64,000 bases of DNA from positions 171,395 to 235,394 of IMG/VR virus record IMGVR_UViG_3300015263_000944, one strand, 5' to 3'. Positions within the stretch are counted from its first letter, which is position 1. Every line of letters starts with the position of its first letter. Below the pieces are notes generated by a model, which worked only from the letters and a program-made list of their open reading frames with translations, was not told the DNA's origin and ran no database searches. The stretch comes from a virus. A program made the position numbers and the translations under genes. Below, one piece after another: positions 5,605-56,409 of this stretch.

Positions 5605-7788
<2,184 letters not shown>

Positions 7789-9209: not shown

Positions 9210-9672
9210 GGTTGTGTTGGTTCGGGGCTGGGGTAGGGTTGCCGAACAGATCACACTAGGAGAATTCGAAAGAATCAACGCTGATTATGTCGTGTTGATC
9301 ACGGCACTGAGATACCCCTCAACCTTGCCAGAGGAATACTCTGGCTTCGAAGCCGATCCTACATCCATGTACACAGATGCCAAGAGCATTCTGCACTACT
9401 GGGCATTGCACGACCAACACTATATGGTCGCCGCCGAATATGCCAACATCGTTACCAGCCGATCAGGCAAAGAGATCAAGGCTGTTGAAGGCAACTCGCT
9501 GGAGATCGACTGGTGGTATGACACAGTGAGAAACTACCACCGCCACTTCGGCCAGACCGTCATCGATGCCCGTGTTTTGTATGATGAAGGCAAGTGCCTC
9601 ATTATTGATGGCATCAAGCACTCATTGGAACATGGGATCGAACTACTCCGACCCCAGCCATTTCTGGGATAA
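9199..9672 (+). CDS. Hypothetical protein
   Basis: ORF track; coupled to upstream GT. Confidence 0.4.
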   Translation: MRSKVVLVRGWGRVAEQITLGEFERINADYVVLITALRYPSTLPEEYSGFEADPTSMYTDAKSILHYWALHDQHYMVAAEYANIVTSRSGKEIKAVEGNSLEIDWWYDTVRNYHRHFGQTVIDARVLYDEGKCLIIDGIKHSLEHGIELLRPQPFLG

Positions 9673-10284
9673 CTGAATCAACCGCTGCGCCTGCTGGTGA
9701 TCGAAGACATCATTGCAGCACCCAGTCTTGCTTTCCAGATGAGCTTTGACTCGCTCAGTCTGCTCCCACTCCTCTTTGAGAATGCCGAGCATGATAGAGT
9801 CGTAGTATCTTCCAGACTTGAACACGGCACGGCGACGACGCCCTTCGACCTTCATGCCTAGATGGCCGATCTCAAGCTTCTGAGCGGCAGCGTGTGTCTC
9901 TAGCACTTCTGCTTGGACTCGCTGCATATTGAGCACCTCGAAACAGAAGTCGAGCCCGCAAGAGAAGGCAGGCTTAACGATCTCTTCCATCTTGCGGCTC
10001 TCTTTGAAGACGGAGCCACTGAGATTCAACGTCCGAGCAAACCAATCAATGTCGGTGAACAGAGCAATTCCAATGGCGTTGTTGTGCCCTGTGTTGCCCT
10101 CGCCTTCAGCCATCATCGCCAAGTTGTTGTGCCCGAGACTCTCGTACCACTTCAATTGATCTTCTGCGTTGATGATCGACGTTCCATGGGTGCCCCACCA
10201 GCTTTCGCTCTTCAAAGCCATCAAGGCGTGCAAGTCTCCCTTGTGCAACTTCCTTAGTGTAATTCCCTCTTTGTGCTTATACAT
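9643..10284 (-). CDS. GNAT-family N-acetyltransferase (RimL-like)
   Basis: QRVQAEVLETHAAAQKL and GMKVEGRRRRAVFKSGRYYDSIMLGILKEEW, typical GNAT motifs A/B. Confidence 0.65.
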   Translation of the reverse strand: MYKHKEGITLRKLHKGDLHALMALKSESWWGTHGTSIINAEDQLKWYESLGHNNLAMMAEGEGNTGHNNAIGIALFTDIDWFARTLNLSGSVFKESRKMEEIVKPAFSCGLDFCFEVLNMQRVQAEVLETHAAAQKLEIGHLGMKVEGRRRRAVFKSGRYYDSIMLGILKEEWEQTERVKAHLESKTGCCNDVFDHQQAQRLIQLSQKWLGSE

Positions 10285-10532
10285 CAGAATCCCTCCAATC
10301 TCCAGTTAGGTCGCAAATCGACAATCTCAAATTCTTGTGTGAAAGTAATGAGTCCTTTTTCGTACCAAGGCCAGAGAAGACTGCGTGCGTGTCTTGTCAG
10401 CCCTTTGACAATCTCCCCGGCCTCGAAAACTTGCTCAACATACAAGCCATTCGACAACTGCATCTCGAACGCCAAATCCTCATTGGAAATGTTGCGTGCA
10501 GTGAACGTGTTCAAAAGCCTTCGTTCTTCCAT
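10284..10532 (-). CDS. Small hypothetical protein, C-terminus ...NWRLEGF (paralog 1 of 3)
   Basis: Three tandem overlapping 73-82 aa ORFs all ending W-x-x-EGF. Confidence 0.45.
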   Translation of the reverse strand: MEERRLLNTFTARNISNEDLAFEMQLSNGLYVEQVFEAGEIVKGLTRHARSLLWPWYEKGLITFTQEFEIVDLRPNWRLEGF

Positions 10533-10747
10533 TTGACCGGCTCAGCCCTTTCTCCTTGCAAAAACGCATGTTCTAAGAACTCGGGAGTGAGCCAATAGTT
10601 CGTCCCATCTTGAAATGGCGACAGATCTCCGTGGTCAGAATAGAAAAGAACCGATTCTCCTGCATCCAACACAATCACTTCGCCATTCGGCCTGTGGATC
10701 GTAATTGGCTCAGACTCTCTGTTCTTTATAACATAAGTGTGGCTCAA
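10511..10747 (-). CDS. Small hypothetical protein, C-terminus ...KWKNEGF (paralog 2 of 3)
   Basis: See above; start overlaps upstream stop. Confidence 0.45.
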   Translation of the reverse strand: MSHTYVIKNRESEPITIHRPNGEVIVLDAGESVLFYSDHGDLSPFQDGTNYWLTPEFLEHAFLQGERAEPVKWKNEGF

Positions 10748-10965
10748 AATCCCTCGATGGCCCAGTTGTGGACTTCACTCTGGTAAACATCCTCGTCCTT
10801 AAACCAACCCCACTCAACGAAATCCCACGTCTCGTCTGTGGGATATTCATCAGAGTCTTCGTAGATCGCTTTTTGTCCGGGGCGAAGTAACTCTGTGCGA
10901 CCGGAAGTAAAGTCGGCAAGCAACGCAACGTCACACACATTTGTCAAACAACAGACCATCAACAT
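10744..10965 (-). CDS. Small hypothetical protein, C-terminus ...NWAIEGF (paralog 3 of 3)
   Basis: See above. Confidence 0.45.
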   Translation of the reverse strand: MLMVCCLTNVCDVALLADFTSGRTELLRPGQKAIYEDSDEYPTDETWDFVEWGWFKDEDVYQSEVHNWAIEGF

Positions 10966-11788
10966 ATTCCTTCAAGTTGTGCTTGGGCCTCCAGCCCAAC
11001 ATGGCCTTGGAATGGTGAATATCGGCCAACGTGTTGTCGGCCTCACCGGGTCGCTTTGGCAGATATTCGATTGGCCGTCCAAACATCTCTGCCACTTCGT
11101 TGATCGAATGATTCGTACCTGTCCCGAGATTAAAGATCTCGGCATCCCAGTCGCTCTCAGACATGGCGAGCAAACCATTCACGATGTCTTCGACATGGGT
11201 GAAGTCACGGCGTTGTTCTCCCGTCCCAGTGACGGTGAGTGATCGACCCTCTCTCGCTTGTCGCTCGAAGATTCCAACGACTGTAGCATAAGCCCCATCT
11301 TCAAGTTGGCGTGGGCCATAGACGTTGAAGAAACGAGCGATAGCAACTGGGACATTGTAGAGACGGTTGTAAAGTGTGCAATACTCTTCCGCCTTAAGCT
11401 TCGTGAAACTGTAAGGATTGGCGTACTGGTCATGGTAGACCGAACTTGAACCTGCGTAAATGACCCTTGACCCACAAAGCCGTGCCATCTCCAGAATCTT
11501 CATGGTGCCAGTGACGTTTGACTCATGTGTCACATCGGGCTTCTCGAAGCTGGGTTGAATTCTGGCCTCACCAGCCAGATGAAAGATGGCCTCATAGCCA
11601 TCCTCTGCATGATACTTTGGATGGATGGATTCTACAGATATCTCATGAAAGCGAGCCTGTTCATGAACTTGCTCCCGCTTGCCAGTCGTCAACGAATCCC
11701 AGACTACCACTTCATGGCCGTCCTTAATCAATCTGTCTGTCAGATGTGATCCAATGAAACCGGCTCCTCCTGTGACCAGATACCGCAT
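10931..11788 (-). CDS. NAD-dependent sugar epimerase/dehydratase (SDR; GalE/HldD-like)
   Basis: MRYLVTGGAGFIGSHL Rossmann motif, YSFTKLKAE (YxxxK), GEQRRDFTHVEDI. Start at MRYLV, not the upstream Met of the ORF track. Confidence 0.8.
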   Translation of the reverse strand: MRYLVTGGAGFIGSHLTDRLIKDGHEVVVWDSLTTGKREQVHEQARFHEISVESIHPKYHAEDGYEAIFHLAGEARIQPSFEKPDVTHESNVTGTMKILEMARLCGSRVIYAGSSSVYHDQYANPYSFTKLKAEEYCTLYNRLYNVPVAIARFFNVYGPRQLEDGAYATVVGIFERQAREGRSLTVTGTGEQRRDFTHVEDIVNGLLAMSESDWDAEIFNLGTGTNHSINEVAEMFGRPIEYLPKRPGEADNTLADIHHSKAMLGWRPKHNLKEYVDGLLFDKCV

Positions 11789-11790
11789 GA

Positions 11791-12105
11791 CTACCCCGGA
11801 TTGTTTTGATTGAAAGTCTGAAACGACCATGTGGCTCGATCAGACGGGTTGACGTTCTCCATTGGGGTGCCGCCGACTGTGATCGTGAATTGATCACTAG
11901 AGAATCGACCCATCATTGGATCGATGGCTGCGATCTCTGAAATTGATGGAGTTTTGTCCTCGGTGAGATAGGGTTGTATAAGACGCTCTGCTTCTTCGTC
12001 TTTCAGTTCCAAACAACCTCGCCACCCATTTTCATACGCTTGAACCAATAAACTTCTGAGATCGTCCAAATCAATTTGTATCATTCGTGTGGCTCCCAAT
12101 AACAT
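11791..12105 (-). CDS. Hypothetical protein
   Basis: ORF track; overlapping start/stop with neighbours. Confidence 0.35.
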   Translation of the reverse strand: MLLGATRMIQIDLDDLRSLLVQAYENGWRGCLELKDEEAERLIQPYLTEDKTPSISEIAAIDPMMGRFSSDQFTITVGGTPMENVNPSDRATWSFQTFNQNNPG

Positions 12106-13199
12106 ATAAAATAGTGGTCGCCGTCCTTTTCTCCCAGCAAGACGCCATCAGACTTGCGCCGCTGGCCGTCCGCAAAATCGGGCCGCAGAACACGATAATG
12201 ATCAAACAAAGGCTTCCCGCCAATCTCTGGGCAGTTGTCCAAATGATCAACAACCTTGTTCATTGCTTCGGATGGATTCAGTTGGTAGATGGGATATGTT
12301 TTCGGCTTGTACTCAACCCGATTAAACAAGTTCCCTTGTGAACTTTCTTCGACATAGGCCATCCCTTCCGACTCTTCGATATAGGCCATCGCCTTCGTCA
12401 TAGAATAAGGACGAACATCCACGGTGAACTTCACGCCGATCTGCTTGCCGAGAATGATCGATGCGGCTGTCAAAGAAATACGATTGAAACCGCAACACTG
12501 CTCCAACAAATGCTTCTGTTGGATCTCCTCGATGTATCGTTCCACTTCGCTTGCCATGTCTGGCAGATTGAATTTCTTCAGATGAATGAGTCGATTTCTG
12601 GCTTCGTCGATATCACGCTGGTAAATGTTTTGATGTCGATAGAAGGTTGAGAAGTCCGCTGGGTGAGCGATCCAAAACGACTCTCCCTTCTTGTGCAGAA
12701 CAGCGAGCCCCACTTCTTGTGAATCCTTGCGTTCTCGCATAAGCCGTCGCAAGCCACTGTCCTTAATGAAACGCACATTCATCAAGTGACTGTATGGCGA
12801 ACCAATCCCGCCTGCAATCGTCTTGAACATCTCATGTTTGGCAAGTCCACGCTGAACAGATGCCAAGACCTCAGAAGAGAGACTAACAGATTTTCCGTAT
12901 GAGACCAACTTGAGCACATCACAAGCATAACGGCTGAAGCTTCCTTCTTCACTCCCTACAAGCTGGCCGTCGAAAATCTCAAACAGATCAGGGTGTGGGT
13001 TCTCCAGATCGATGCACTCGACAAACAGAGCGAGATTTACACCGAGTTCCTGTCCCAAGGCATCTGTGAGATCCTTGTCATAGTACATCGGAACGTCTGT
13101 GAGAATACCCGAAAGGGGCGGCGTTTCTACAACGTCGCCCCTTTCAAATACTCGTTCCAAAATTTGGAGTTGTTGAGATTGAACATCCGTGTCAATCAT
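12081..13199 (-). CDS. Hypothetical protein (372 aa)
   Basis: ORF track; no motif recognised. Confidence 0.5.
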   Translation of the reverse strand: MIDTDVQSQQLQILERVFERGDVVETPPLSGILTDVPMYYDKDLTDALGQELGVNLALFVECIDLENPHPDLFEIFDGQLVGSEEGSFSRYACDVLKLVSYGKSVSLSSEVLASVQRGLAKHEMFKTIAGGIGSPYSHLMNVRFIKDSGLRRLMRERKDSQEVGLAVLHKKGESFWIAHPADFSTFYRHQNIYQRDIDEARNRLIHLKKFNLPDMASEVERYIEEIQQKHLLEQCCGFNRISLTAASIILGKQIGVKFTVDVRPYSMTKAMAYIEESEGMAYVEESSQGNLFNRVEYKPKTYPIYQLNPSEAMNKVVDHLDNCPEIGGKPLFDHYRVLRPDFADGQRRKSDGVLLGEKDGDHYFICYWEPHE

Positions 13200-13728
13200 C
13201 CTTCGTCCTTTTTACTTCCACACGGGCCGTCACATTATGGCCCTCGAAACCCGGTGGCTTCTCCACCGTTGCGATATCTGAAAGCATCGCAATGACCTTG
13301 TTCAAGGCTTCGAAGCCCATGTCCTTATGGGCCTTCTCTCTGGCCTTGAATTTGACGACGAACTTCACACGGTGTCCCTTCTCTATGAACTTCCGGGCTT
13401 GATTCGCCTTCGTCTCCAGATCGTGATCGCTGATCACATATCTGAAGGACAACTCTTTGTCCTTGTGGGACGCCGGTTGTTTCTTCTTCTTGCTCCTCTC
13501 GAACATGAACTTGCCGTAGTCCATGATCTGGCAGACTGGGGGCCGAGCTTGCGGAGCAACCTCGACGAGATCGAGACCAGCCTGTTTCGCTCGATAGAGA
13601 GCATCAGGCGTGGGCATGACCCCTAGATTCTGACCGTCCTGAATGACCCTGACTTCTTTGATGCGGATTCGCTCATTACAACGAACGAAATCCTTCTTCT
13701 TTTCTGCCTTCTCGAATTTCTTTGGCAT
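13192..13728 (-). CDS. infC: Translation initiation factor IF-3
   Basis: N-domain CNERIRIKEVRVIQDGQNLGV...LDLVEVAPQARPPVCQIMDYGKFMFE and C-domain FRYVISDHDLETKANQARKFIEKGHRVKFVVKFKAREKAH align along their length with bacterial IF-3. Confidence 0.85.
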   Translation of the reverse strand: MPKKFEKAEKKKDFVRCNERIRIKEVRVIQDGQNLGVMPTPDALYRAKQAGLDLVEVAPQARPPVCQIMDYGKFMFERSKKKKQPASHKDKELSFRYVISDHDLETKANQARKFIEKGHRVKFVVKFKAREKAHKDMGFEALNKVIAMLSDIATVEKPPGFEGHNVTARVEVKRTKDD

Positions 13729-28959: not shown

Positions 28960-29391
28960 TCAGATTTCAATGGTGGACTTGAAGGTGTTTGTTTCGGGAT
29001 CAAATTTGAGAGTTGTGATCAATTCCCAGTGCGGGTCGGCCTTCGGGACGTACTCTTTTTGTGTGTAGAACATGGCTTCTATGACGAATTCGTACTCTTT
29101 TGCCGCCACTTCGTCATCTGACATGCCCGCCAGAAGATCCTCGCACATCTCCCGACAAATCCGGTAGCAATCCGGCATCCGGGCGCAATGGATCTTGTTC
29201 ATAACCATCGAAGCCTGAAACGCCTTGTCAATCTTCAGCAGATTGATGATGTCTCGCTTCTCAGGGCCATCGCCGAAAATAGCGACGGCAGAGAACTTCG
29301 CCATCACCTGCCCAGCTTTCGGGCCGTGCTTGCGGGTGTCGAAGAAATAGTCGTGAAAATTGCTGTCGTCGATGATGACTTCTTCTGTCAC
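28960..29391 (-). CDS. Hypothetical protein
   Basis: ORF track. Confidence 0.4.
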   Translation of the reverse strand: MTEEVIIDDSNFHDYFFDTRKHGPKAGQVMAKFSAVAIFGDGPEKRDIINLLKIDKAFQASMVMNKIHCARMPDCYRICREMCEDLLAGMSDDEVAAKEYEFVIEAMFYTQKEYVPKADPHWELITTLKFDPETNTFKSTIEI

Positions 29392-32270
29392 AGATCCTCC
29401 AGAATGTCGAAGCCTTCTTCGAAGGTCAGGTCCGTCAGGATCGACTCATCGGGCTTCTCAGGCTTGGGTATCGTCTTCATTACTCTGATGCGATAATCCT
29501 CATCTTTCGGCGGCAGTGTGTTCCGCTTATGCTTCGGAACGCTGTCGAAGGTGAAAGTGTTATATCCACCAGATGGGGGCCTCATGCGAACTTTCAGCAG
29601 AGCACCCTTCTTCAATTCGTCCTGCCATCTGGTGTAGTCGTCTGACCAGATATTCATCTTGGCCTGCCGACTATTCGCATCCTCAAATTCAACAGAGTAA
29701 AAAACGACACCATTCTTGCTGGTTCTTTTCCGAACCGACAAGATCTTCACTTCGATGGGCGCAGGGGCGTCACCATCTTTGTCGCATTCTTCAAGGAAGT
29801 AGTCGATGGTGCGACCAGTGAAATCTGGACTCGATTCCAATTCATGATTCCATTGGAAACCATAGTATTGAGACTCGGCCATCGGATATGTCCGCTGGTC
29901 AAAGACCATCATGTAGTCATTCAGCACGGCTACTTCTTCTTCGTCCAACTTCACCGACGCCGCATTGAACCCATCCATCGTGATCGGATTCTCATCATCG
30001 TCCTTCTCATTCTCCTCGAATCGACGCACGCTGGTTGCTCGTTTGTTCGACAAATCGCTGAGCATCTTCGCCACAGAAACCTGTCGCACTCGATCCTCAC
30101 CCTTGTACTTGTAGGGCACGTCACGGACGATATGTTCAAAGCGTTCTTCCCAGAGCTTCTCAGCCTCTTCAGTGAAGCGAGCCATCTTATCGAAGTCGGG
30201 ATCGCTCTCAGTGATCTCAGTGAGAAGCAACTCACGCAATTCTTCATCCTTCTTGACCATCGAGCCTTCGAAGCGTTGTTGACGCTGCCGACGCTTGGTG
30301 ATTTTGTCTTTGAAGAACTCATGGAACTTCCGCAAATGTTCTCTGTCATAGTGCGGCTCCAGTTCGTCGAACACGCCCAGAGCGATGAGGGCTTTGAGCG
30401 GCGCACCATCCGTTCCAAATTTTGTAAGGAAGTCCGGGAAGTCCTTGTACGGCTGATTCTCCACGATGCGATCAGCCACCGCTTCCCCGATGCCCTTGAT
30501 GTTCTTGAATCCGAAGTAGACCTTCCCATCAGCGATGTTGAAGTTCATCTTCGACTTGTTGATGTTCACCGGACAAACCTCAATGCTATGTTTCTTGGCA
30601 TCCAGTTTGTACTCACGGAACTTCTCGTGATCCTTCTCACACATCAGCGTGGCTGCATAGAACTCCAGAGGATAATGCGCCTTCAAATACAGCAGTCGTG
30701 ACGAGATGTAGGTGTAAGCACAAGCATGGGACCGGTTGAACCCGTATTCGGCGAATGACTCAATTTGATCCCAGAGATCACTGACGAACTCCAGATTCGC
30801 CCCGAGGTTCTTCTGGCCGTTCGTCAAGAACATCTCTTTGTACTTGGCGAACTGAGACACCTTCTTCTTTGAGATGGCTTTACGCACTTTCTCAGTGTGC
30901 ATGTCAGGAATGTTCCCGACGATACGCAAGATGTCCATGACTTGTTCTTGGTACACAAGAACGCCGTAGGTCTTGCCGAGACTTTGTTCCATGATCGGAT
31001 GGATGTTATATGGCTCGCCGCCCTCACGGTCGCCATCACGCCACTTCTTGCGTTTGCAGTAGCGGGCGTCCATCCCCATGTTCAACGGGCCGGGACGATA
31101 GAGAGCCGAATAGGCCACCAGATCTTCGAAGCTGGTCACACCACCACGCTTCACCAGCTTGCGAATACCTTCGCCGTCAAACTGGAAGATACATCGCAGG
31201 TCGGCTTTGTTAGCCATCTCAATCGCAGCAGGATCATTGAGATAAGAGATGTCAGACCAATCGGTGTCCCCCTCTCTGGCACAGATGGATGTAAGACCAT
31301 ATCGCTTCTTCACGAGTTCTGCCGCCAGAGCGATCTGCATGAGGTTGTTGATGACCAGAAGGTCGAACTTGATCAAGCCCACCGGCCCAAGGTCTTGATG
31401 GGCGAGGCCCTCAGACCATGCCGAGCAGATTACACCGTTGGGATGCTGCTTGTTGACCTTCCGCACTTCGAGCGGCACGAAACCATCGATTCGCTTACTG
31501 GAGATAATCAGACCTCCAGCATGGACGCCAGAGTGAGTGTTGCGGCCCTGAAAGAGTTTTGCCGCTTCGGCGATCTCTGGGTTCTCTTCGCAGTAGAGGG
31601 CAAACTTCACATATGCGGTGTCGGCAGGGACGCTGCCTTTGGCTTTCCGAAGTTCAGAGAACTTCTGAACCCAATCCACATCGCCGGTCTCCAACTCCTT
31701 CTTAATCTCATCCTGCTCTTCTTTGGTGGCGATCTGGAAGGTGGCGATTTCAAAGATCTTGTCCCACTCCAGCGGCTTGCCGTCGTCATCCTTATCTTCA
31801 AGCATCGACGTGATGCCTTGAATCTCATGAATGTCAGCCCCATGCACACGGGCCATATCCAAGATGGATGACTTGATGCCCGCCGTTCCGTAGGTGCCGA
31901 TCTCACAAACCTTCTCTTGGCCGTAGGCTTGAGCCGCCCACTGCTCTTTGAGGTAGTCTCGCACCGGCTTCAAGAAGTCGATGTCGATATCGGGGAACTC
32001 GCCCTGAATCCAAGTGTTGGGCCGCTCGATGTCGAACTGTCCTGTGAGATCCAACAGGTAGTCGATGAGGTTGTTGTGTTCGTTCTCTGGGAAGATTAAG
32101 TTTTCCGCCCGAAACTTATCGTGAAGGCCAAGAAGGTACTCATGCTCAGCCTGAGCATCGATTTCCTTAAGCTCTGACTTCAGCCGTTCCTTGTACCTGA
32201 CATCCTGCATCAAGCCTCGCTTCTCCATAGATGCAAGGCACAAGCGGATTAGCTTGTCTCGTTCCTTCAT
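29388..32270 (-). CDS. dnaE: DNA polymerase III alpha (DnaE-type) polymerase core, C-terminal fragment of a split gene
   Basis: EFPDIDIDF catalytic motif about 100 aa from start; GLIKFDLLVINNLMQIALAAELV (GLLKMDFLGL-like); length 960 aa matches the palm/thumb/fingers/OB region. Confidence 0.85.
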   Translation of the reverse strand: MKERDKLIRLCLASMEKRGLMQDVRYKERLKSELKEIDAQAEHEYLLGLHDKFRAENLIFPENEHNNLIDYLLDLTGQFDIERPNTWIQGEFPDIDIDFLKPVRDYLKEQWAAQAYGQEKVCEIGTYGTAGIKSSILDMARVHGADIHEIQGITSMLEDKDDDGKPLEWDKIFEIATFQIATKEEQDEIKKELETGDVDWVQKFSELRKAKGSVPADTAYVKFALYCEENPEIAEAAKLFQGRNTHSGVHAGGLIISSKRIDGFVPLEVRKVNKQHPNGVICSAWSEGLAHQDLGPVGLIKFDLLVINNLMQIALAAELVKKRYGLTSICAREGDTDWSDISYLNDPAAIEMANKADLRCIFQFDGEGIRKLVKRGGVTSFEDLVAYSALYRPGPLNMGMDARYCKRKKWRDGDREGGEPYNIHPIMEQSLGKTYGVLVYQEQVMDILRIVGNIPDMHTEKVRKAISKKKVSQFAKYKEMFLTNGQKNLGANLEFVSDLWDQIESFAEYGFNRSHACAYTYISSRLLYLKAHYPLEFYAATLMCEKDHEKFREYKLDAKKHSIEVCPVNINKSKMNFNIADGKVYFGFKNIKGIGEAVADRIVENQPYKDFPDFLTKFGTDGAPLKALIALGVFDELEPHYDREHLRKFHEFFKDKITKRRQRQQRFEGSMVKKDEELRELLLTEITESDPDFDKMARFTEEAEKLWEERFEHIVRDVPYKYKGEDRVRQVSVAKMLSDLSNKRATSVRRFEENEKDDDENPITMDGFNAASVKLDEEEVAVLNDYMMVFDQRTYPMAESQYYGFQWNHELESSPDFTGRTIDYFLEECDKDGDAPAPIEVKILSVRKRTSKNGVVFYSVEFEDANSRQAKMNIWSDDYTRWQDELKKGALLKVRMRPPSGGYNTFTFDSVPKHKRNTLPPKDEDYRIRVMKTIPKPEKPDESILTDLTFEEGFDILEDL

Positions 32271-35139: not shown

Positions 35140-35152
35140 CTTCTAACTTGAG

Positions 35153-35532
35153 TGGACCGGACGGGATTCGAACCCGTGTCTTGCTCTGCCGTCAAAGCGG
35201 CGTCTACGATCATGTCTCTCGATTTGAGTTGTCGGCCAGCCGGTCGCTCATGAGAGCACAGCTACCATGCCAGCTTAGTCGATTTGAGTTTCGCCCATCT
35301 CTCCTACGACTCGGAGATTCAGGACTATCCTGATGGCGGTACGTCGCAGACCTATCAGGCATCGGTCATTGACGCTTCGGACGGGCCTAGCCCGTCACTG
35401 CTTACGCAGCCATGCGAAGAGGAGTCGAAGTTTCGACAATTATGGTTTTGAATGACTTTTAACGTGGCCCGTCATTCAACCACGGATCGCAGCCATCTTC
35501 TCAGAACAGCCAATCGATTCCAATTCCAGCCC
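35153..35532 (-). ncRNA. ssrA: tmRNA (ssrA), one-piece, about 380 nt
   Basis: Minus strand: 5' GGGCUGGAAUUGGAAUCGAUUGG (cf. E. coli GGGGCUGAUUCUGGAUUCGACGGG). 3' ...ACGGGUUCGAAUCCCGUCCGGUCCA with T-loop GGUUCGAAUCC. Acceptor stem GGGCUGG/CCGGUCC includes G3-U70 and discriminator A. Putative tag ORF GUC|GAA ACU UCG ACU CCU CUU CGC AUG GCU GCG UAA (ETSTPLRMAA) at 35402-35434, preceded by CAAAACCAUAAUUGUC like E. coli CAAAAAAUAGUC. Confidence 0.7.
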
Positions 35533-41023: not shown

Positions 41024-42433
41024 TTAAGCTGCATCCGCATGTGGGATCGGCTGCAAGCTGTGTCGAATCTTCATCTGCTTACCGCCACGAGCCGGGCTCA
41101 AGAAACGACTGAATCTCAAGTCGTTGATGATTGGCTCCACATCATGCAATCGCAGGCAGTAAGCCACCAGTGAACCGCAAGCCGAACCACGGCCCGGACC
41201 CACGGCTTCTGAGCCATCGCCGAACCCAACAATGCTGGGGCCGACATGGCGAGCTTCATCTGTCATCTGTTTCTGAATCAGGAAGTAGCTGGAGAAGCCC
41301 TTCTCACAGATCAGGTCGTACTCTTCCCGGATGCGGGATGAGTATTCCTTGGTGGCTGGACAACCTCGGGCCTTGAAGCCTCGCAGGGTCTCTTGCCATA
41401 GAAGGTCATCGGCATCTGGAATCTTCGGGAGCTTGATGTCCCTGTCGATCTCAACGCCCTTTGCTTTCTCACAGATGGCGATGGTGTTTGCTTTGGCTTG
41501 TTTGAAGATCTCGTAGTCGATGATGTCTTTGTACTTCAACTCCCACATGGCGTTGAGTTCGTCTTCTGACTTCAGCCACAGATTGGTGTCCTGAAGCTCA
41601 AAGAGATCATCGGCTTGACCGGAATCGATCATGGCCTGCACTTCTTGAATCGTGCGTTTGTTTTGCTGCATCAGCATGAGTCGCTGATTGTGACTGTGCT
41701 CTTTCTTGATCATCGGGAGACCGTACTTCTCGTGTGCCCGAATGAGGAAGGCGTTGTACGGCCCCTGCATCTTCCAGTCGAGCATCATCATTTCAAGGTA
41801 GAAGTTGTCTCGACCGAGCATGTCGATGTAGTATTCCAACATTTGGAATCCCGCCTCATCGCCGCCCTCAAAGAAGGCTGTGGCTATTTCGCTGATGCCA
41901 CAACCACTGGTGAAAATGATGCCTTCCTTGTGTTCTCGGAGAGCATCATGGTTGATTCGAGGGCGATAGTAGTATCCGTGAATCCACGCCCACGACGACA
42001 ACCGAACGAGGTTTTGGTAGCCGATGTTGTTATAGGCAATAGCGAGCAGATGACATGATTTGCGGAAGATCTTCTGCTCTGGTGTTTGGGCTTTCGTCTC
42101 GGCATTGGGATCGCCAAGACTCTTGTAGAACTCAGCCGTATCAGAACGAGTGTTGGATTTGGGCTGCATCCGATTGACATACAACTCGCAACCGAACAGC
42201 GGGTACAAGTTGTGCTTCTCTGCTTGTTCGATCTGCTGGGGAACTGCGCCCATAACCCCGTGATCGGTAATGCAGAGATACTTCTGGTTGATCTCCTTCA
42301 TCCGCTGGGCATACTCCCACACCATGGCAAAGCCATCGAGAAGAGAGAAATCCGAGTGTCGGTGAAGATGCTCAAAGCCCATAATCGGATGGTGCATTAC
42401 TCGTCGCCTTCCTTGGTTCCGTTTTGTTGCCAC
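41024..42433 (-). CDS. dnaE: DNA polymerase III alpha (DnaE-type) N-terminal fragment: PHP domain through start of palm
   Basis: HLHRHSDFSLLDG PHP motif; ends GPGRGSACGSLVAYCLRLHDVEPIINDLRFSRFLSPAR (E. coli [36 protein letters not shown]), then about 20 extra aa and a stop. Confidence 0.85.
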   Translation of the reverse strand: MATKRNQGRRRVMHHPIMGFEHLHRHSDFSLLDGFAMVWEYAQRMKEINQKYLCITDHGVMGAVPQQIEQAEKHNLYPLFGCELYVNRMQPKSNTRSDTAEFYKSLGDPNAETKAQTPEQKIFRKSCHLLAIAYNNIGYQNLVRLSSWAWIHGYYYRPRINHDALREHKEGIIFTSGCGISEIATAFFEGGDEAGFQMLEYYIDMLGRDNFYLEMMMLDWKMQGPYNAFLIRAHEKYGLPMIKKEHSHNQRLMLMQQNKRTIQEVQAMIDSGQADDLFELQDTNLWLKSEDELNAMWELKYKDIIDYEIFKQAKANTIAICEKAKGVEIDRDIKLPKIPDADDLLWQETLRGFKARGCPATKEYSSRIREEYDLICEKGFSSYFLIQKQMTDEARHVGPSIVGFGDGSEAVGPGRGSACGSLVAYCLRLHDVEPIINDLRFSRFLSPARGGKQMKIRHSLQPIPHADAA

Positions 42434-44724: not shown

Positions 44725-45045
44725 TTAGTCTCCCATGATCAGCGATCCGAGATCATCGTCGATGCCAGCAGGCTTGACGTATCCGGTCGCTTCGAGTTTC
44801 TTTTGTGTTCGATAGGCATTCCGAAGACTCATACAACAATCTTCGGCACGATCCCATCCTGCCGTCTTCCAGACATCTTTGAGTGGGCCGACGTTCTGCC
44901 AGCCCTTCTCTGTGAGGTATTCAGCCATCACTTTCTCTTCGGCCTGACGAGCCTCTCGCTTCTTTTCCTTTTGCTTCTCTCGACGGCGGGTCTTAGAAGC
45001 AGGTTCGTTGGCTCGCTTGGCACGTTGCTTTTTGGTTAGTGTCAT
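44725..45045 (-). CDS. Basic hypothetical protein
   Basis: ORF track; K/R-rich N-terminus. Confidence 0.4.
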   Translation of the reverse strand: MTLTKKQRAKRANEPASKTRRREKQKEKKREARQAEEKVMAEYLTEKGWQNVGPLKDVWKTAGWDRAEDCCMSLRNAYRTQKKLEATGYVKPAGIDDDLGSLIMGD

Positions 45046-46643
45046 TTCAGGAAATCCTTCTCATATTGTTCTCTGGACATGATGTGGACATCACTATCCA
45101 TGTTCGGACCATCGCAGACCAAGACGTATTCTTCCCCGTCAAGGTTCTGAGATCCCAGAACAACCACATTCTGCCAGATCATGTGAATTGAAGTGAGAAC
45201 CTCTGTGGCGTACTTGTGGTACAGCGGTCGTCCATCAGCGTAGTGCTGCATGAAGAACCAGCCTTTGCCCAAGTGGTTCGGGTCGGTCAACCTGATGTCA
45301 GGCAAACCGCCATTACAGTAGCGTTGGAGCATCTGTTTCTTGACTTCCTTGAAATCACGAGACGTGATCTTCCACTCGCCCGTTGACATGCGGCGGTAGG
45401 TGTAATACTGCATCTTCTCGGCGAACTCTGGAGTGAAGAATTCGTTGATCAAGGTGTAGTCGTTGTAATACTTCCTGACTTCGAAGACCTTCTCCATGCC
45501 GAGCCCAAGTTTCTTATCCCACTTGGCCTTCTCCCGCATGTTGGTGCATTCTTCCCATTCCTTGCCGAACTTGCCCTTGTTCCATCGATCTTCGATGTCC
45601 AAGAGAAGCTCGAAGCCCAGCTTGTATGGGTTCTGACTCCACTGACCTCCCAAGACTCGCATCTTGTGTTCGGCATAGTGCCAGATACCAGCCGCTTCAT
45701 CGTCCTGTCCGAGTGAGGCAAGGCCCTCCCGACAGAGTAGGTGGTAATCGACGAAACTGGCCCAACCTTCATTGATCATCTTCGTTTGTCGCTGAGGTTG
45801 GAAGTACATGGACTCATCATAGAGCATCGAGATGATGTCTTGCTGCCACGGCTTGAGTGGAGCATTATTCTTCAAGAATCCCATGATGTCTCGATCAGCA
45901 CGACCGAACAGGCCAAGGAATTCCGAAGCTTCTTTCTTCTCAATTCTCTCGTGTTCCTTCTCGATGTACGAGTCGGGGTTGACCCATTCGTCCATGTAGT
46001 CATGAGTGGATTTCAAACGTCTGGGAAAATGGTATTTTCTTTCATCCCTGACATTCTTGTTTTCAATCTTCTTTCGCTTCCATGCCTTCTGAGGATCAAT
46101 GAGCGTTTCGATTCGCATCACATGGTCGATGAACTCTGTGACACGCTCGCCGCCCCAACGCTTCATGTACTGACGAATTCGAGTGCTGTGATTCGCCAGC
46201 TTGTTCATCATGTTTTCGTCAGTCGGCCCAAAGAAAATGTTGTTCTTGAAGAAGTCGTTGTGGCCGATGGCGTGACAGATAACGTCCACGTTGTCTACCA
46301 ACGTGTTCGAGTCCATGCAGTAGATGTAACATGGATTGGTGTTGATCACCATTTCCGAGATACGGTACTGGTTGTATTCGTAACCACGACTCATTTCCTC
46401 ATATTCCATTCCCCACTTCCAGTGTGGGTATCGGACAGGGAAACCGCCGTAGCTGGCAAGCTCAGCCATTTCGTCGTAGCGGACAAATTCAACGATGATG
46501 GGATAGTAGTCCAACCCCATATCCCTGCAAGCCTTCTCCATCTGAGGAAGCAGTTCCTCCACTTCCTTGTGGATCTTCAGACCGGGAATGTTGTTGTCAC
46601 CAACCAGAATTGGTGTCCCGCTCATCATGTTAGATTTTGACAT
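45042..46643 (-). CDS. SpoVR-family protein
   Basis: Full-length similarity pattern to SpoVR/YcgB (about 530 aa; HWKWGMEYEEMSRGYEYNQYRI, CHAIGHNDFFKNN). Confidence 0.85.
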   Translation of the reverse strand: MSKSNMMSGTPILVGDNNIPGLKIHKEVEELLPQMEKACRDMGLDYYPIIVEFVRYDEMAELASYGGFPVRYPHWKWGMEYEEMSRGYEYNQYRISEMVINTNPCYIYCMDSNTLVDNVDVICHAIGHNDFFKNNIFFGPTDENMMNKLANHSTRIRQYMKRWGGERVTEFIDHVMRIETLIDPQKAWKRKKIENKNVRDERKYHFPRRLKSTHDYMDEWVNPDSYIEKEHERIEKKEASEFLGLFGRADRDIMGFLKNNAPLKPWQQDIISMLYDESMYFQPQRQTKMINEGWASFVDYHLLCREGLASLGQDDEAAGIWHYAEHKMRVLGGQWSQNPYKLGFELLLDIEDRWNKGKFGKEWEECTNMREKAKWDKKLGLGMEKVFEVRKYYNDYTLINEFFTPEFAEKMQYYTYRRMSTGEWKITSRDFKEVKKQMLQRYCNGGLPDIRLTDPNHLGKGWFFMQHYADGRPLYHKYATEVLTSIHMIWQNVVVLGSQNLDGEEYVLVCDGPNMDSDVHIMSREQYEKDFLK

Positions 46644-47638
46644 TACTCGGTTCTCCTCCAGATATCATCCACATCATACGAGATATCTGTAATTAACTCA
46701 AGCTCTTCCCGCACTCTTCTTATAGGTTCCGACCAATCTCCTTCGGTCGATTGCCAGAAGAGTTTAACCGTGTCGTACCACATGGTTGTTTTAGAACGAT
46801 CCCACAAAGGATTATCGTCGGATTTCATCAATCCAAAAGTTGGTTTGTTCATGGTGCCTGCCAAATGAAGGACAGATGAGTCTGTCGCAATGACCGCATC
46901 CATGGCGTCGATCAAAATTGCCACGTCGTTGAAATCGTATGTTGATGGCATCAACATTGATTCGGTGTTGGGCAAGGTGTAAATGTTCCATCCCGATTCT
47001 TTAAGGACGGCCATTTGTTCCTCGGGGATTTGTTTGACGTGCAAACCACAAGCGGGCCGATTGGGCTGTATTGCCGCCTCGCCGTGAGGCAGAATCTCTG
47101 GCTGCCAAGGAACTTTGGTCTTCAGAATGACCGATCTGTCGGCGGGATAGTAGTGATCCAACTTGAGGCCACTCAACAGAGCCGGGATGCACATGATGTT
47201 GGTGTGGTAATCGCAAAGGACATGCTGATTGGTGAACTCATCCACGAACCAAACATCTTCCATCAATTTCTTTAAGGCTTCGTAGGCCGAGTAGCAATTC
47301 AGCACGATGCGACATTCCCATTCCCGCTTCAAAGCGGCGAGATATCTAAAGAAATTGATGGTGTTGCCGATGTTGAAGTCCGTGAACACTTCAATGGACG
47401 ATCCACGCAGGGACTCCCCCCGCCAGTTGCGGCCAAAGTGTTTGGAAAGGTCTGGACGTGATGCGCCCAGTGTGTCTGAAACAATCAGGCTGTAGAGTTC
47501 GCCGATGAGTTCGTGACTGGGATCTAATTTGCGGATAACTTCCAACAACTTGACGGCTTTATCGGGCAAGCCGATCCAGTAGTAGTTGTTGACAGTCGCC
47601 AGACCTTGATCAAGATACTGTTTGGAGTCCCGTGCCAT
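46643..47638 (-). CDS. GT9 (heptosyltransferase)-like paralog 3
   Basis: VIATDSSVLHLAGTMNKPTFGLMKSDDNP resembles the heptosyltransferase C-terminal motif. Confidence 0.5.
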   Translation of the reverse strand: MARDSKQYLDQGLATVNNYYWIGLPDKAVKLLEVIRKLDPSHELIGELYSLIVSDTLGASRPDLSKHFGRNWRGESLRGSSIEVFTDFNIGNTINFFRYLAALKREWECRIVLNCYSAYEALKKLMEDVWFVDEFTNQHVLCDYHTNIMCIPALLSGLKLDHYYPADRSVILKTKVPWQPEILPHGEAAIQPNRPACGLHVKQIPEEQMAVLKESGWNIYTLPNTESMLMPSTYDFNDVAILIDAMDAVIATDSSVLHLAGTMNKPTFGLMKSDDNPLWDRSKTTMWYDTVKLFWQSTEGDWSEPIRRVREELELITDISYDVDDIWRRTE

Positions 47639-48473
47639 GAATGCTGTCCCTCAACTCTCGAATTTCCTGATGCGTCGGATCGTCGCTTTCATCGAGATTG
47701 ACAAGGAACTCGTCGGACACTTCTGGCCTTCCGCCCTTGGGATAGCAGAAAATGTTCAACGAATTGCCTGCATTCAAGACATCCACCTTGTGATACTTGA
47801 AGTTGTCTGGATTGTAGACAGGAGTTTCATGCAACTCCCAGTCATAACCCACATGCTCCACGAATCTCAAAATGTCTTCCCTGTTGTCGGCAAAGTTCAC
47901 ATACAACAGAGGGGTGGACCTATCGATGGTGCGACGGCAACCATTCAGTACAGAAAGCTCCATGCCCTGCACTGACACCTTAATCAACTTGGGCTTCGCC
48001 AAGTTGACATCATCGATGGCAATTGATGCTACCGGATTATCACATTTACGTCCATCTCGGTCCTTGGCATTCAACAATGTCGCCAAGCTGATTTGTGATA
48101 GATCGACTTCACCATTGATGTCAACCGATGGGAAGTAACAGACGCCTTTGCTGGAATCTGTCACCGAACGGTTGAATGCTTGGATGTTGGTGATCTGGTT
48201 GAGAGCGATGTTGCCGCACAACATGAAGTACAGGAACGTGTGAGCCTCAATTGCCAAGACGTAACCCTCTGAGGTAACGTGCTTCGCCAAAGGAATCGTG
48301 ATCGATCCAATGTTGGCCCCAACATCAACGACCACATCACCCTTGTCAGTCAGCTTCTTCAAGAATTCTACCTTGAAAGAATTGACTTCTCCGTAGGTGT
48401 CCAGAGAACGACCTACCAATTGATCGTTCTCTAAGAACATCATGTCTCCATACTTCGTGCTGCTGACTTTCAT
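47610..48473 (-). CDS. FkbM-family methyltransferase
   Basis: VVVDVGANIGSITIPLAK motif typical of FkbM MTases. Confidence 0.65.
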   Translation of the reverse strand: MKVSSTKYGDMMFLENDQLVGRSLDTYGEVNSFKVEFLKKLTDKGDVVVDVGANIGSITIPLAKHVTSEGYVLAIEAHTFLYFMLCGNIALNQITNIQAFNRSVTDSSKGVCYFPSVDINGEVDLSQISLATLLNAKDRDGRKCDNPVASIAIDDVNLAKPKLIKVSVQGMELSVLNGCRRTIDRSTPLLYVNFADNREDILRFVEHVGYDWELHETPVYNPDNFKYHKVDVLNAGNSLNIFCYPKGGRPEVSDEFLVNLDESDDPTHQEIRELRDSIHGTGLQTVS

Positions 48474-49714
48474 GCTGCTGCCTCTCTCTTATCGTTTTCT
48501 TTGCCCAAGATCTTACGGATGGCTTCGATGATCTGCTCGTTGCGATCTTCTTCGCTGAGATTGGGGGCATAACCCCAGTTCCCGAATCCGAAGTTCCCAT
48601 CATCGTTATCCGATTCATCGGGGCCGACATTGGCCGTCTCGATATAAGAAGAGTCCAACTTTCCGCCTTTTAGGGCGTTGTCGAGGTGTTGTTTCACACT
48701 ATCTTCGTATCTCCAAGAACAAACCTGCGTCATGCCCAACAGATTAACCTTGCTGGGACCGAGTTCTTCTTTGATGATCTTGATCATCCGGCTGTTGTCG
48801 TCGCCCCAGTTGTCACCATCTGAGAAGTAGAAGATGTAGACGTTGTACTTCTCTGGCGGATATCTGTTTTCCAACTGATCCGCAATGGCCCGGAACGCCG
48901 ACGAACACATTGTTCCACCACCATAACGATAGGTGTAGAACGCCTCTTCGTTGACTTCCTGTGCTCTGGTGTCGTGGACAAAGTAGCAACGATCCACCTT
49001 GTCATAGAATTTTCTGATCCAGCAGTCGATCCACCAACTCATGTCGCTGACAATATCGCAGCGATAGTCGTCCATCGACGCCGAGCAGTCTCGGGCGAAG
49101 AAGATGACAGCATTCGAGGAAGGAATCTTGATCTGTTTGTACTGTCGATATCTGAAGTCGTTGTTGATGGGCGTCAGCAATCGAACTGGCACCTTGCAGC
49201 CCGGCACCCACTGGAGGTTCTCCAGTTCGCCGGTCATCGACAATCGCTTCAGTGCTTCCTTCATCGTTCGACGAGGATGGCGCAACGCTTGCAAACCGAC
49301 CCGAGAGATATCGTTGTACTTGATCTTGATCTCTTCGTAGGTTTCATTGGGCTTGGGCCTCATGCGAGGCAACTTCAGTTCGTCCTGCATGAACCGCAGA
49401 ACGTCATCCATATCGATAGTGATCTGGATGCCTTCACCGGGATCTTCCCCAGCTTTGTTGCCACCCTTGCCCGGTTGTGGGTCTCGCCCAACAACGTCGC
49501 CTTCTTTTCCCGGCCCACGACCGACACCTTCCCCGTTGCTTCCAAACACGAAGCGAGGAATCTCGATCTGCGGGATAGAGATCGTCATCTTGCCGCCCTT
49601 GGGCCGCTGACGAACGATGGACCCCGACTTGATCAGTCTTTTCAATTCACGTCGGGTGCGTCCAGAGATCACATCTCTGAACTTCTTATGATCTTCTTGG
49701 ATTCTCTTTGGCAT
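48470..49714 (-). CDS. YeaH/YhbH-like DUF444 (vWA-fold) protein
   Basis: Gly-rich N-region GPGKEGDVVGRDPQPGKGGNK, then vWA-like FFARDCSASMDD; length and order match DUF444. Confidence 0.8.
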   Translation of the reverse strand: MPKRIQEDHKKFRDVISGRTRRELKRLIKSGSIVRQRPKGGKMTISIPQIEIPRFVFGSNGEGVGRGPGKEGDVVGRDPQPGKGGNKAGEDPGEGIQITIDMDDVLRFMQDELKLPRMRPKPNETYEEIKIKYNDISRVGLQALRHPRRTMKEALKRLSMTGELENLQWVPGCKVPVRLLTPINNDFRYRQYKQIKIPSSNAVIFFARDCSASMDDYRCDIVSDMSWWIDCWIRKFYDKVDRCYFVHDTRAQEVNEEAFYTYRYGGGTMCSSAFRAIADQLENRYPPEKYNVYIFYFSDGDNWGDDNSRMIKIIKEELGPSKVNLLGMTQVCSWRYEDSVKQHLDNALKGGKLDSSYIETANVGPDESDNDDGNFGFGNWGYAPNLSEEDRNEQIIEAIRKILGKENDKREAAA

Positions 49715-49794
49715 GATGCTCCCCTTGTGTAAGAAAAGAGGGCGATAGCGGTAGAGTAACGATCAACCACCACTACCGCCCCCAACGTCCGTCA

Positions 49795-56191: not shown

Positions 56192-56409
56192 CAGTCAGTT
56201 CCTCTTCTGAAGATCAAGCTTGCCACCCATCCCAGAATCATGCCAACCAGCAATGACAGAGGCGCAGCAAGATACAACCACACAACAACATATGCCCCGC
56301 CAATTGACGGGTCTTGTTCTGCGGCAGCCCCGCCAGCATTTTGCAGCCATATCCAAGAGCCAAGCAGGCCCAACAGACCACCGCAAACAACAAACAGAAA
56401 CTCTCTCAT
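56191..56409 (-). CDS. Small membrane protein
   Basis: Two hydrophobic segments. Confidence 0.35.
   Translation of the reverse strand: MREFLFVVCGGLLGLLGSWIWLQNAGGAAAEQDPSIGGAYVVVWLYLAAPLSLLVGMILGWVASLIFRRGTD

Follow-up and report, generated by a model that had tools for sequence, protein, structure and literature searches.

A C-terminal W-x-x-E-G-F tail shared by unrelated small proteins of large phages is probably an address or docking signal

What, if anything, is read at the ends of three neighboring small proteins that agree in little but their last residues? Their genes lie on a 64,000-nucleotide stretch of viral DNA (positions 171,395 to 235,394 of IMG/VR virus record IMGVR_UViG_3300015263_000944; hereafter, the window), where three minus-strand open reading frames (ORFs), designated ORF3, ORF2, and ORF1 in the direction of reading, follow one another with overlapping ends and all terminate in W-x-x-E-G-F (Table 1). 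An earlier note, made from the letters of the window, had called them translationally coupled paralogs and had suggested that the tail may be a docking or sorting signal. Here, we report that the tail is not peculiar to the trio but widespread among viruses, a point which that note overlooked, and that constraint acts on the peptide itself; we then weigh what the peptide might be for.

Results

A rare ending on three genuine genes

All three ORFs (82, 78, and 73 aa) were found where they had been described, with overlapping stop and start codons at the ORF3/ORF2 and ORF2/ORF1 junctions and with the tails NWRLEGF, KWKNEGF, and NWAIEGF. Read in six frames, the window contains approximately 1,290 stop-to-stop segments of 30 aa or more, and an EGF or W-x-x-EGF ending occurs only in these three, which are all adjacent; 0.003 W-x-x-EGF endings are expected from the residue frequencies of the window (Poisson P(≥3) = 4e-9). 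Pairwise BLASTP comparison of the trio aligned the tail only, so that the description of the proteins as otherwise poorly similar stands. A Pfam search of the three proteins returned no family (for ORF3, none even at E ≤ 1), and a PHROGs search returned nothing above threshold (a single PHROG at E = 0.36). The genes are real: ORF2 and ORF3 are conserved as ORFs, at 30% to 60% identity, in syntenic relatives, and ORF1 has a homolog, T172, in locus L241 from another metagenome. The source (JGI) gene calls start ORF3 at its second ATG (10959), giving 71 aa, and lack ORF2, which was missed because its TTG start overlaps the preceding stop. An alternative in-frame TTG at 10514 would shorten ORF1 to 76 aa, the length of T172, and this match makes it possible that the TTG at 10514–10512 is the true start. 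The best explanation is that ORF1 to ORF3 encode small cytoplasmic proteins.

The tail is carried by numerous unrelated viral proteins

A DNA scan of IMG/VR with a pattern for two tails at the spacing of the trio returned two contigs, namely L002, a syntenic relative of the window, and L003, from an unrelated phage, in which five small tandem ORFs end in V[ND]W[KQ][KR]EGF. The DNA pattern for W-K-K-E-G-F-stop matched 31 viral loci and that for V-[ND]-W-x-x-E-G-F-stop 38, and the latter with an overlapping ATG added matched 118 metagenome loci. Across the viral and metagenome scans, the search for small proteins with a terminal EGF proposed in the earlier note thus yielded 283 distinct tail-ending ORFs of at least 35 aa, which, once their tails are removed, fall into 194 body families unrelated by BLAST (median 103 aa). 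A Pfam domain was recognized in 1 of 58 family representatives. The consensus ending is E-K-[VI]-[ND]-W-[KQ]-K-E-G-F-stop, and the family-weighted profile reads E(0.35)-K(0.33)-V(0.72)-[N 0.55/D 0.35]-W-[K/Q]-[K 0.58]-E(0.98)-G-F, with the reservation that, the loci having come from pattern searches, prevalence and the V and [ND] frequencies are partly ascertainment-biased. The enrichment of E at position −10 and K at −9 lies outside every search pattern, and the preference for V and N/D was apparent already in the W-K-K-E-G-F-stop scan, which left both positions unspecified. In this wider alignment, then, the similarity of the tails is clearly significant. Within the library searched, neither the motif strings nor a matching description turned up in any paper.

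Tail genes are often neighbors, with 65 runs of two or more and 92 runs of length 1. The longest array, on MDTG01031237.1 (120 kb, GC 34%; L224:1–12339 and L222:7791–11550), comprises 27 consecutive paralogs of approximately 150 aa, which end in NW[QE][QK]EGF and are each overlap-coupled to the next; ten further tail genes outside the array bring the contig to at least 37. Of the 194 families, 29 have a transmembrane-like segment; where examples were read, basic residues come after this segment, an arrangement that places the tail in the cytoplasm. Such small single-pass membrane proteins, with the tail behind a basic, presumably cytoplasmic stretch, include those of L185 (2934–3197, plus strand), L013, L015, L031, and others; the L185 gene overlaps the start of a dCMP deaminase gene.

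Two further observations concern the limits of the family. Degenerate tails (...LDWKQLGF, ...KIDWKQGF, and ...VNWQKDGF) stand beside canonical ones at L024:220–699 and L017:6845–7042 and 9080–9277, and 17 terminal W-x-x-x-GF endings in which the residue before the Gly is neither E nor D were counted, which suggests that the E position tolerates some change. A DnaB-type replicative helicase of 458 aa (L004:476–1852, minus strand) ends in ...EEEPEPKSSGGTKWKKEGF, that is, in a flexible linker followed by the tail. Helicases with this ending also occur in L005, L010, L026, L027, and L029, all of one lineage; their tail is without the usual [VI][ND] before the Trp and could be either a genuine instance or a chance match.

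Constraint acts on the peptide

In the tail codons, Glu is encoded by GAA 39 and by GAG 29 times, Phe by TTT 37 and by TTC 33 times, and Gly by GGA (28), GGC (14), GGG (14), and GGT (14), and the stop that follows is TGA (42), TAA (24), or TAG (4). The two “x” codons vary freely, and variation is otherwise concentrated at synonymous third positions. Across the six frames of 1.2 Mb of tail-bearing loci, 299 of 301 distinct W-x-x-EGF occurrences directly abut a stop codon, whereas permuted control motifs occur 1 to 7 times internally and never terminally in the same sequence. Comparison of the sequence 3′ of the tail stop across loci revealed nothing conserved. The 21-nt tail pattern was also matched in at least 120 places in 185,579 cellular genomes, mostly in random-frame segments of 6 to 35 aa and never in arrays. 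Given the free use of synonymous codons, the adjacency of the stop, the lack of conservation downstream, and the random-frame character of the cellular matches, the object of constraint is a peptide that is in frame and strictly C-terminal, and its family is a viral one.

The tail codons also serve at gene junctions

The same nucleotides appear to have a second use, also overlooked in the earlier note. On the coding strand, the ORF3/ORF2 junction reads GAG GGA TTT TGA, with a 4-nt overlap of stop and TTG (TTTTGA), and the ORF2/ORF1 junction reads GAA GGC TTT TGA; the ATG of ORF1 lies 22 nt inside ORF2, and counted from the TTG the overlap is again the 4-nt TTTTGA. Each TTG codon takes its first T from the end of the Phe codon and its TG from the stop. 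At the ORF1/GNAT junction, GAG GGA TTC TGA TG, a single nucleotide is shared, the A of the stop being that of the GNAT ATG. Because the Glu-Gly codons precede the stop/start overlaps at the junctions of the trio, they form the Shine-Dalgarno (SD) sequence of the next gene. In relatives, the ORF2 homolog always has a TTG at the ORF3 stop (L185, L189, and L190), whereas its frame relative to ORF3 varies, being the same in L189 (TTT TGA TTG) and −1 in the window, L185, and L190; a fixed-frame recoding event is therefore ruled out. The claim of translational coupling is thus consistent with the sequence, in which starts overlap stops, the Glu-Gly codons supply an SD sequence, and the stop-abutting TTG is kept in relatives.

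In the wider set, the stop overlaps an ATG in 19 of 47 tail ORFs compared with 76 of 877 background ORFs. Since the ATGA overlap, used by 130 of the 877 background genes, is impossible after a Phe codon, the appropriate comparison is that of total overlap coupling, which stands at 40% for tail genes against approximately 24% for the background. At least 17 tail ORFs have no same-strand ORF downstream, and the tail is retained by the last member of the L003 array and by the convergent cases in L011 and L025. These observations support termination-reinitiation, in which the tail codons contain the SD sequence, as a genuine use of the tail, though a secondary one, because uncoupled tails exist and the downstream frame varies. 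Mechanistically, the Glu-Gly codons (GARGGN) just upstream of the stop would act as the SD sequence of the overlap-coupled next gene and, in the window, would start translation at the weak TTG of ORF2 and at the GNAT ATG and, probably, at the TTG of ORF1.

Bodies of the trio proteins

An exhaustive HMMER search with ORF3 identified 12 small orthologs, and a profile search added more, for a total of at least 20 (67–92 aa; 38% to 63% identity). In these, body residues 1–57 are conserved and the length of the linker varies by approximately 25 residues, and the proteins end in H-[NS]-W-x-x-E-G-F; the tail is kept in all but 2 of the 19 compared, the exceptions being P0014, without the tail, and P0016, with C replacing W. 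Orthologs of ORF2, with the conserved TTG start, were found in L185, L189, and L190, and it was observed that they are miscalled or shortened in relatives (58-aa calls in L185–L188); genes started within such overlaps are probably under-represented in protein databases. At the position of ORF1, the relatives carry an unrelated, untailed, Lys-rich gene of approximately 97 aa, and ORF1 is therefore a lineage-specific replacement. Word-indexed homolog searches for ORF2 and ORF3 returned nothing or the query itself, and protein-based locus searches of viral contigs returned nothing.

Whether the three are paralogs, as the earlier note had it, depends on the pair considered. With the tails trimmed, the profiles of the ORF3 family and of the ORF2 family were aligned by hhalign across 53 columns (P = 1e-4), whereas ORF1 with T172 gave P = 0.003–0.004 against the ORF2 family and the merged ORF2 and ORF3 profile (reversed-sequence controls, 0.07–0.37). 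Of the trio, ORF3 and ORF2 were modeled with AlphaFold2, each yielding a folded β-domain with a disordered tail. The ORF3 model, built with an alignment, has five strands and a helix (mean predicted local distance difference test score (pLDDT) 90 for the body and 51–65 for the linker and tail); the single-sequence ORF2 model has β1–β4 near the ORF3 positions, a helix, and a last strand (body pLDDT approximately 80–88, tail below 50). The two models share the order β1–β4 ... α-β. Profiles and models together give moderate support to distant paralogy of ORF3 and ORF2, and the profile values give weak support to the inclusion of ORF1.

A fold search of PDB and BFVD gave no significant match for the ORF3 fold. 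Two candidate assignments of the ORF3 body were rejected: a cupin fold (best Foldseek E = 0.6–1 over approximately 32 residues) and a PKD domain, which had no Pfam match and whose phmmer matches to PKD repeats were summed weak repeats around a WDF motif.

The virus and its relatives

Table 1. Features of the window discussed in the text (window coordinates)
Feature	Position	Strand	Description
ORF3	10744..10965	minus	73 aa from first ATG; ends ...HNWAIEGF
ORF2	10511..10747	minus	78 aa; TTG start overlapping ORF3 stop; ends ...VKWKNEGF
ORF1	10284..10532	minus	82 aa from ATG at 10532; ends ...PNWRLEGF
ORF3 tail codons	10747..10767	minus	N-W-A-I-E-G-F; read from sequence and motif statistics
ORF2 tail codons	10514..10534	minus	K-W-K-N-E-G-F; read from sequence and motif statistics
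ORF1 tail codons	10287..10307	minus	N-W-R-L-E-G-F; read from sequence and motif statistics
ORF3/ORF2 junction	10744..10755	minus	GAGGGATTTTGA; E-G codons form SD-like GAGGGA; TTG start (10747–10745) overlaps TGA stop
ORF2/ORF1 junction	10511..10522	minus	GAAGGCTTTTGA; layout as at ORF3/ORF2; in-frame TTG at 10514–10512
ORF1/GNAT junction	10282..10296	minus	GGAGGGATTCTGATG; SD within tail codons; stop overlaps GNAT ATG
NAD-dependent sugar epimerase/dehydratase	10931..11830	minus	Upstream gene, without tail; 3′ end overlapped by ORF3 start
GNAT acetyltransferase (Acetyltransf_3)	9643..10284	minus	Downstream coupled gene; context, outside tail family
DnaJ-like chaperone gene	5957..7114	minus
IF3	13192..13728	minus
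DNA polymerase III alpha, split gene	41024..42433	minus
DNA polymerase III alpha, split gene	29388..32270	minus
tmRNA gene	35152..35532	minus	Predicted tag VETSTPLRMAA
PrkA/DUF444 (YeaH)/SpoVR set	45042..51879	minus	Interrupted by GT9-like gene
GT9-like gene	46643..47638
Thymidylate synthase	56406..57272	minus

Relatives of the window contig are present in IMG/VR. Their conserved gene order runs from a thiamine pyrophosphate (TPP) enzyme, translation initiation factor IF3, a gene of approximately 368 aa, a gene of approximately 100 aa, and an epimerase to the homologs of ORF3 and ORF2, and on to the Lys-rich gene of approximately 97 aa, a GNAT, glycosyltransferases, a sulfotransferase, DnaJ, and PhoH. 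The window itself also encodes a TPP enzyme, a split DnaE, and a PrkA/DUF444/SpoVR set (Table 1). The GT9-like family that interrupts this set recurs in 9 other tail-bearing loci. The tmRNA gene implies that the phage has its own trans-translation RNA. Two genes approximately 9 kb apart share the DNA polymerase III alpha subunit between them, piece A comprising PHP and positions 8–98 of the DNA_pol3_alpha model and piece B residues 100–259, the finger, and HHH, with a seamless break in the Pfam model. The second piece has approximately 90 extra N-terminal residues; a split intein could account for the arrangement, as could an enzyme that truly has two subunits.

An intact, untailed gp23-type capsid protein of 439 aa is encoded on one tail-bearing contig, and this tail-rich contig and the huge phage LR756511.1 (complete, 595 kb) encode capsid proteins that share 78% identity. 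The two genomes share almost no genes besides the capsid protein, and none of the 6,393 open segments of LR756511.1 ends in W-x-x-EGF. Because a phage with so similar a capsid protein has none, the tag counts as accessory, present in some lineages of large phages of the T4 superfamily.

Tail-terminated mini-ORFs with gp23 motifs

There are thirteen distinct mini-ORFs that end in the tail and in which one of the three motifs best conserved in gp23 is present (loci L155, L162/L164, L169, L006/L018/L024, L008, L021, L200, L220, L237, and L003:7370–7552). In L155 (7685–8480, plus strand), three such ORFs are colinear, corresponding to positions 3–48, 132–158, and 310–338 of the Pfam Gp23 hidden Markov model (HMM), each in the −1 frame of the preceding one. 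A split capsid gene was considered for L155 and rejected, since the pieces map to separated stretches of the HMM; an intact gp23-type gene is, moreover, present on a tail-bearing contig. Motif 1, the N-terminal segment best conserved in gp23, probably corresponds to Gol, a region that sets off the Lit exclusion protease and to which EF-Tu binds. No other part of gp23 is conserved as well as Gol (PMC3014915). Judging from these sequence motifs, the mini-proteins, perhaps Gol-like, could act as decoys or adaptors.

Discussion

The tail as a docking tag

The tail is probably an address or docking signal. Its modularity, strict C-terminality, peptide-level selection, variable tether, and disorder lead us, on balance, to favor a short linear motif, tethered at the C-terminus of hundreds of mostly small ORFan proteins in a set of large uncultured T4-superfamily phages, for which there would be a single shared receptor, probably encoded by the phage. 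The docking or sorting function suggested in the earlier note thus remains the best-supported reading and stands on much firmer ground than before, given the 194 families, the C-terminal confinement, the selection on the peptide, the variable linker, and the disordered tail; of this, the tail and its constraint are observed, and we infer the docking itself, together with the identity and location of the receptor. Each protein would consist of a compact β-rich domain, a flexible linker, and a 7- to 10-residue C-terminal motif, the free C-terminus of which (terminal Phe with its carboxylate, and Trp at −6 as a second anchor) would insert into a pocket of the common receptor. Docking of this kind would bring together in one place an extensive set of accessory proteins that diversify rapidly, and the biology of the arrays resembles, by analogy, that of hyperplastic accessory loci. 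A phage-encoded receptor is more likely than a universal host protein because the motif family is absent from cellular genomes and from LR756511.1.

As to the destination, loading into the assembling virion for co-injection, in the manner of the T4 capsid targeting sequence (CTS) or of encapsulin cargo peptides, is a rather unlikely option suggested by analogy. Recruitment of a shared hub (an effector, a protease, or a chaperone) through a tail that acts as adaptor or degron, the two taken together, is possible, though we would not count on it, and some other hub would account for what remains. Tentatively, one can go further and picture a dedicated addressing system, in which small, diversifying proteins, up to dozens per genome, all bear the approximately 10-residue EKVNWKKEGF-COOH and are recognized by one receptor of phage origin; the receptor would either load them into the virion for co-injection or, with the proteins as interchangeable adaptors that bind targets, link them to a shared effector. 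If such a system exists, bacterial viruses would have an equivalent of PTS1/PEX5 or of the Ank/PRANC gene families known from poxviruses, and the gp23-motif mini-proteins would be decoys or adaptors within the system.

Several points weigh against docking. A search for a receptor by neighbor co-occurrence found no family in more than approximately 7% of the loci. The sole recurrent candidate, the GT9-like glycosyltransferase, is not a peptide-binding domain and was rejected as the reader, and subtractive comparison with LR756511.1, which shares so little with the tail-bearing contig, named no receptor. Loading into the virion fits poorly both with the tail-carrying DnaB-type helicase, possibly a chance match, and with the position of the trio in a sugar-modification operon rather than in a head module. 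The adjacency of the stop codon is equally expected of a termination-linked nascent-peptide signal, tail genes are overlap-coupled more often than the background, and an SD-like GARGG is inherent in every tail, so that the translational and peptide roles are not fully separable; the prevalence of the tail is, as said, partly a product of pattern searching.

A termination-linked role of the nascent peptide is accordingly the main rival to docking. It holds that the tail is a termination-reinitiation signal, with the Glu-Gly codons as the SD sequence and the nascent W-x-x-E-G-F plus stop modulating termination in favor of the overlapping weak start. We judge it improbable, although it accommodates much: every tail has GARGG 5 to 10 nt upstream of the stop/start overlap, nearly all occurrences of the motif abut a stop, overlap with an ATG is several times as frequent as in the background (19/47 vs 76/877), the TTG of ORF2 at the ORF3 stop is conserved in four lineages, and arrays are nearly always coupled head to tail. 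Yet all Gly, Glu, and Phe codons are used freely, including those that produce the weak SD sequences GAAGGC and GAAGGT, and a constraint on the SD sequence would leave Trp at −6, [ND] at −7, V at −8, and the reading frame unexplained. Synonymous freedom, the in-frame motif, and the uncoupled tails (at least 17) also dispose of the SD sequence alone as the primary cause. These tails, plus the array-terminal and convergent cases, have no coupled downstream gene, the enrichment in coupling is modest once both overlap types are counted, and the wide differences in linker length among orthologs are no harder, and perhaps easier, to reconcile with a ligand than with an exit-tunnel signal.

The other alternatives explain less. 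That tail and stop form a recoding site (frameshift, hop, or read-through) fusing ORF3, ORF2, ORF1, and GNAT, or the gp23 pieces elsewhere, is very unlikely and largely refuted by the variable frame relation. The layout superficially resembles prfB (SD-like element, U-rich codon, UGA) and T4 gene 60 (GGA, stop, nascent-peptide signal; PMC3014915), and L155 does offer three consecutive tail ORFs with colinear gp23 motifs in successive −1 frames; but L189 has its downstream gene in frame 0 where the others have it at −1, Phe is encoded by either of its codons and any of the three stops may follow, the gp23 pieces are non-contiguous and an intact untailed gene exists, the last array members keep the tail with nothing to fuse, and most of the ORFs downstream begin with an ATG of their own precisely at the overlap. 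A DNA-level cassette boundary (a recombination or homing site or a regulatory repeat), with arrays arising by unequal crossing-over or cassette capture and the peptide incidental, is a most improbable reading as well. A constant 21- to 30-nt 3′ end on unrelated genes of the same orientation, and arrays of up to 27 genes, would suit it, and a constant shared 3′ end recalls integron cassettes or mobile cassettes of the T4 PeSL type. It does not, however, accord with variation at synonymous third positions, with free “x” codons, with the confinement of the motif to in-frame ORF ends (it was not found at similar frequency outside coding sequence or in other frames), or with the commonness of single tail genes; an intron or mobile-element boundary was likewise rejected, as nothing is conserved past the stop. 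Finally, chance resemblance or an annotation artefact, to which the small size of the ORFs, their lack of Pfam and PHROG matches, and the uncalled ORF2 might point, has a negligible claim and is already refuted by conservation: three adjacent endings at P ≈ 4e-9, ORF3 and ORF2 kept at 30% to 60% identity in syntenic relatives, a homolog of ORF1 elsewhere, and confident AlphaFold2 models all speak against it.

Should the docking tag be borne out, approximately 200 unrelated ORFan families of phage “dark matter” would become one functional class by virtue of a shared address. The tag could be a portable tool for protein targeting in these phage systems and a simple sequence marker of accessory or anti-host gene arrays in metagenomes. 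The case also illustrates how the same nucleotides can specify both a peptide signal and a ribosome-binding site for the gene that follows.

Comparison with known systems

As in the prfB +1 frameshift and the T4 gene 60 bypass, an SD-like element and a stop meet at a gene junction (PMC3014915). Unlike these, the junctions described here have a variable frame and free synonymous codons, and tails stand also at uncoupled ends. With the C-terminal degrons of ssrA (...LAA) and MuA (...RRKKAI), the tail has in common that it is a short C-terminal tag transferable between unrelated proteins, and the window does encode a tmRNA; the sequences are unrelated, however, the tag of that tmRNA ends in ...LRMAA, and no link to a protease was found. 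In Escherichia coli single-stranded DNA-binding protein (SSB; ...DDDIPF) and in T7 gp2.5 and gp4, the terminal Phe of a disordered tail plugs into partners. The W-x-x-E-G-F tail resembles these in its terminal Phe and disorder, and one carrier is a DnaB-type helicase with a Gly/acidic linker, whereas SSB-type tails are acidic and confined to replication proteins and the tag here is Lys-rich, has an invariant Trp, and is carried mostly by ORFans and small membrane proteins. Membership in the SSB-type class (acidic, I-P-F, OB-fold SSB) was rejected on these grounds.

In the PTS1/PEX5 system, a C-terminal SKL with its free carboxylate is bound, on many unrelated proteins, by a tetratricopeptide repeat (TPR) receptor. 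The present tag is similarly a strictly C-terminal signal with upstream context residues on many unrelated proteins; PTS1, in contrast, is eukaryotic with a TPR reader, and the recurrent neighbor here is GT9-like, not TPR. Both PTS1/PEX5 and the adaptor families of the Ank/PRANC type are conceptual parallels, not memberships. Encapsulin cargo peptides are C-terminal, sit on flexible linkers of unrelated cargo proteins, and dock inside an HK97-fold shell, and the W-x-x-E-G-F tail, too, is a C-terminal peptide on a flexible linker, as its variable length and the low pLDDT of the tail indicate. The encapsulin peptides differ in their Gly/Leu-rich consensus and adjacent shell gene, against EKVNWKKEGF and epimerase and GNAT neighbors here, and no encapsulin-type operon was seen.

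The CTS of T4 is the only feature common to the hyper-diverse internal proteins (IPI–III and Alt), which are encoded in variable tandem loci (PMC3012670). Unlike the tag, which is C-terminal in 299 of 301 occurrences and can have dozens of carriers per genome, the CTS is N-terminal, approximately 10 residues long, of another sequence, and removed by the prohead protease; the site of that protease is (L/I)-x-E, whereas x1 of W-x1-x2-E is mostly K or Q rather than L or I. Because the CTS is N-terminal and the sequences are unrelated, the tag belongs with neither the CTS nor the encapsulin peptides, although, by analogy, these two would be its closest functional precedents. With the CTS it shares the situation of a terminal short peptide as the sole common part of diverse small phage proteins, in phages that likewise belong to the gp23 capsid superfamily.

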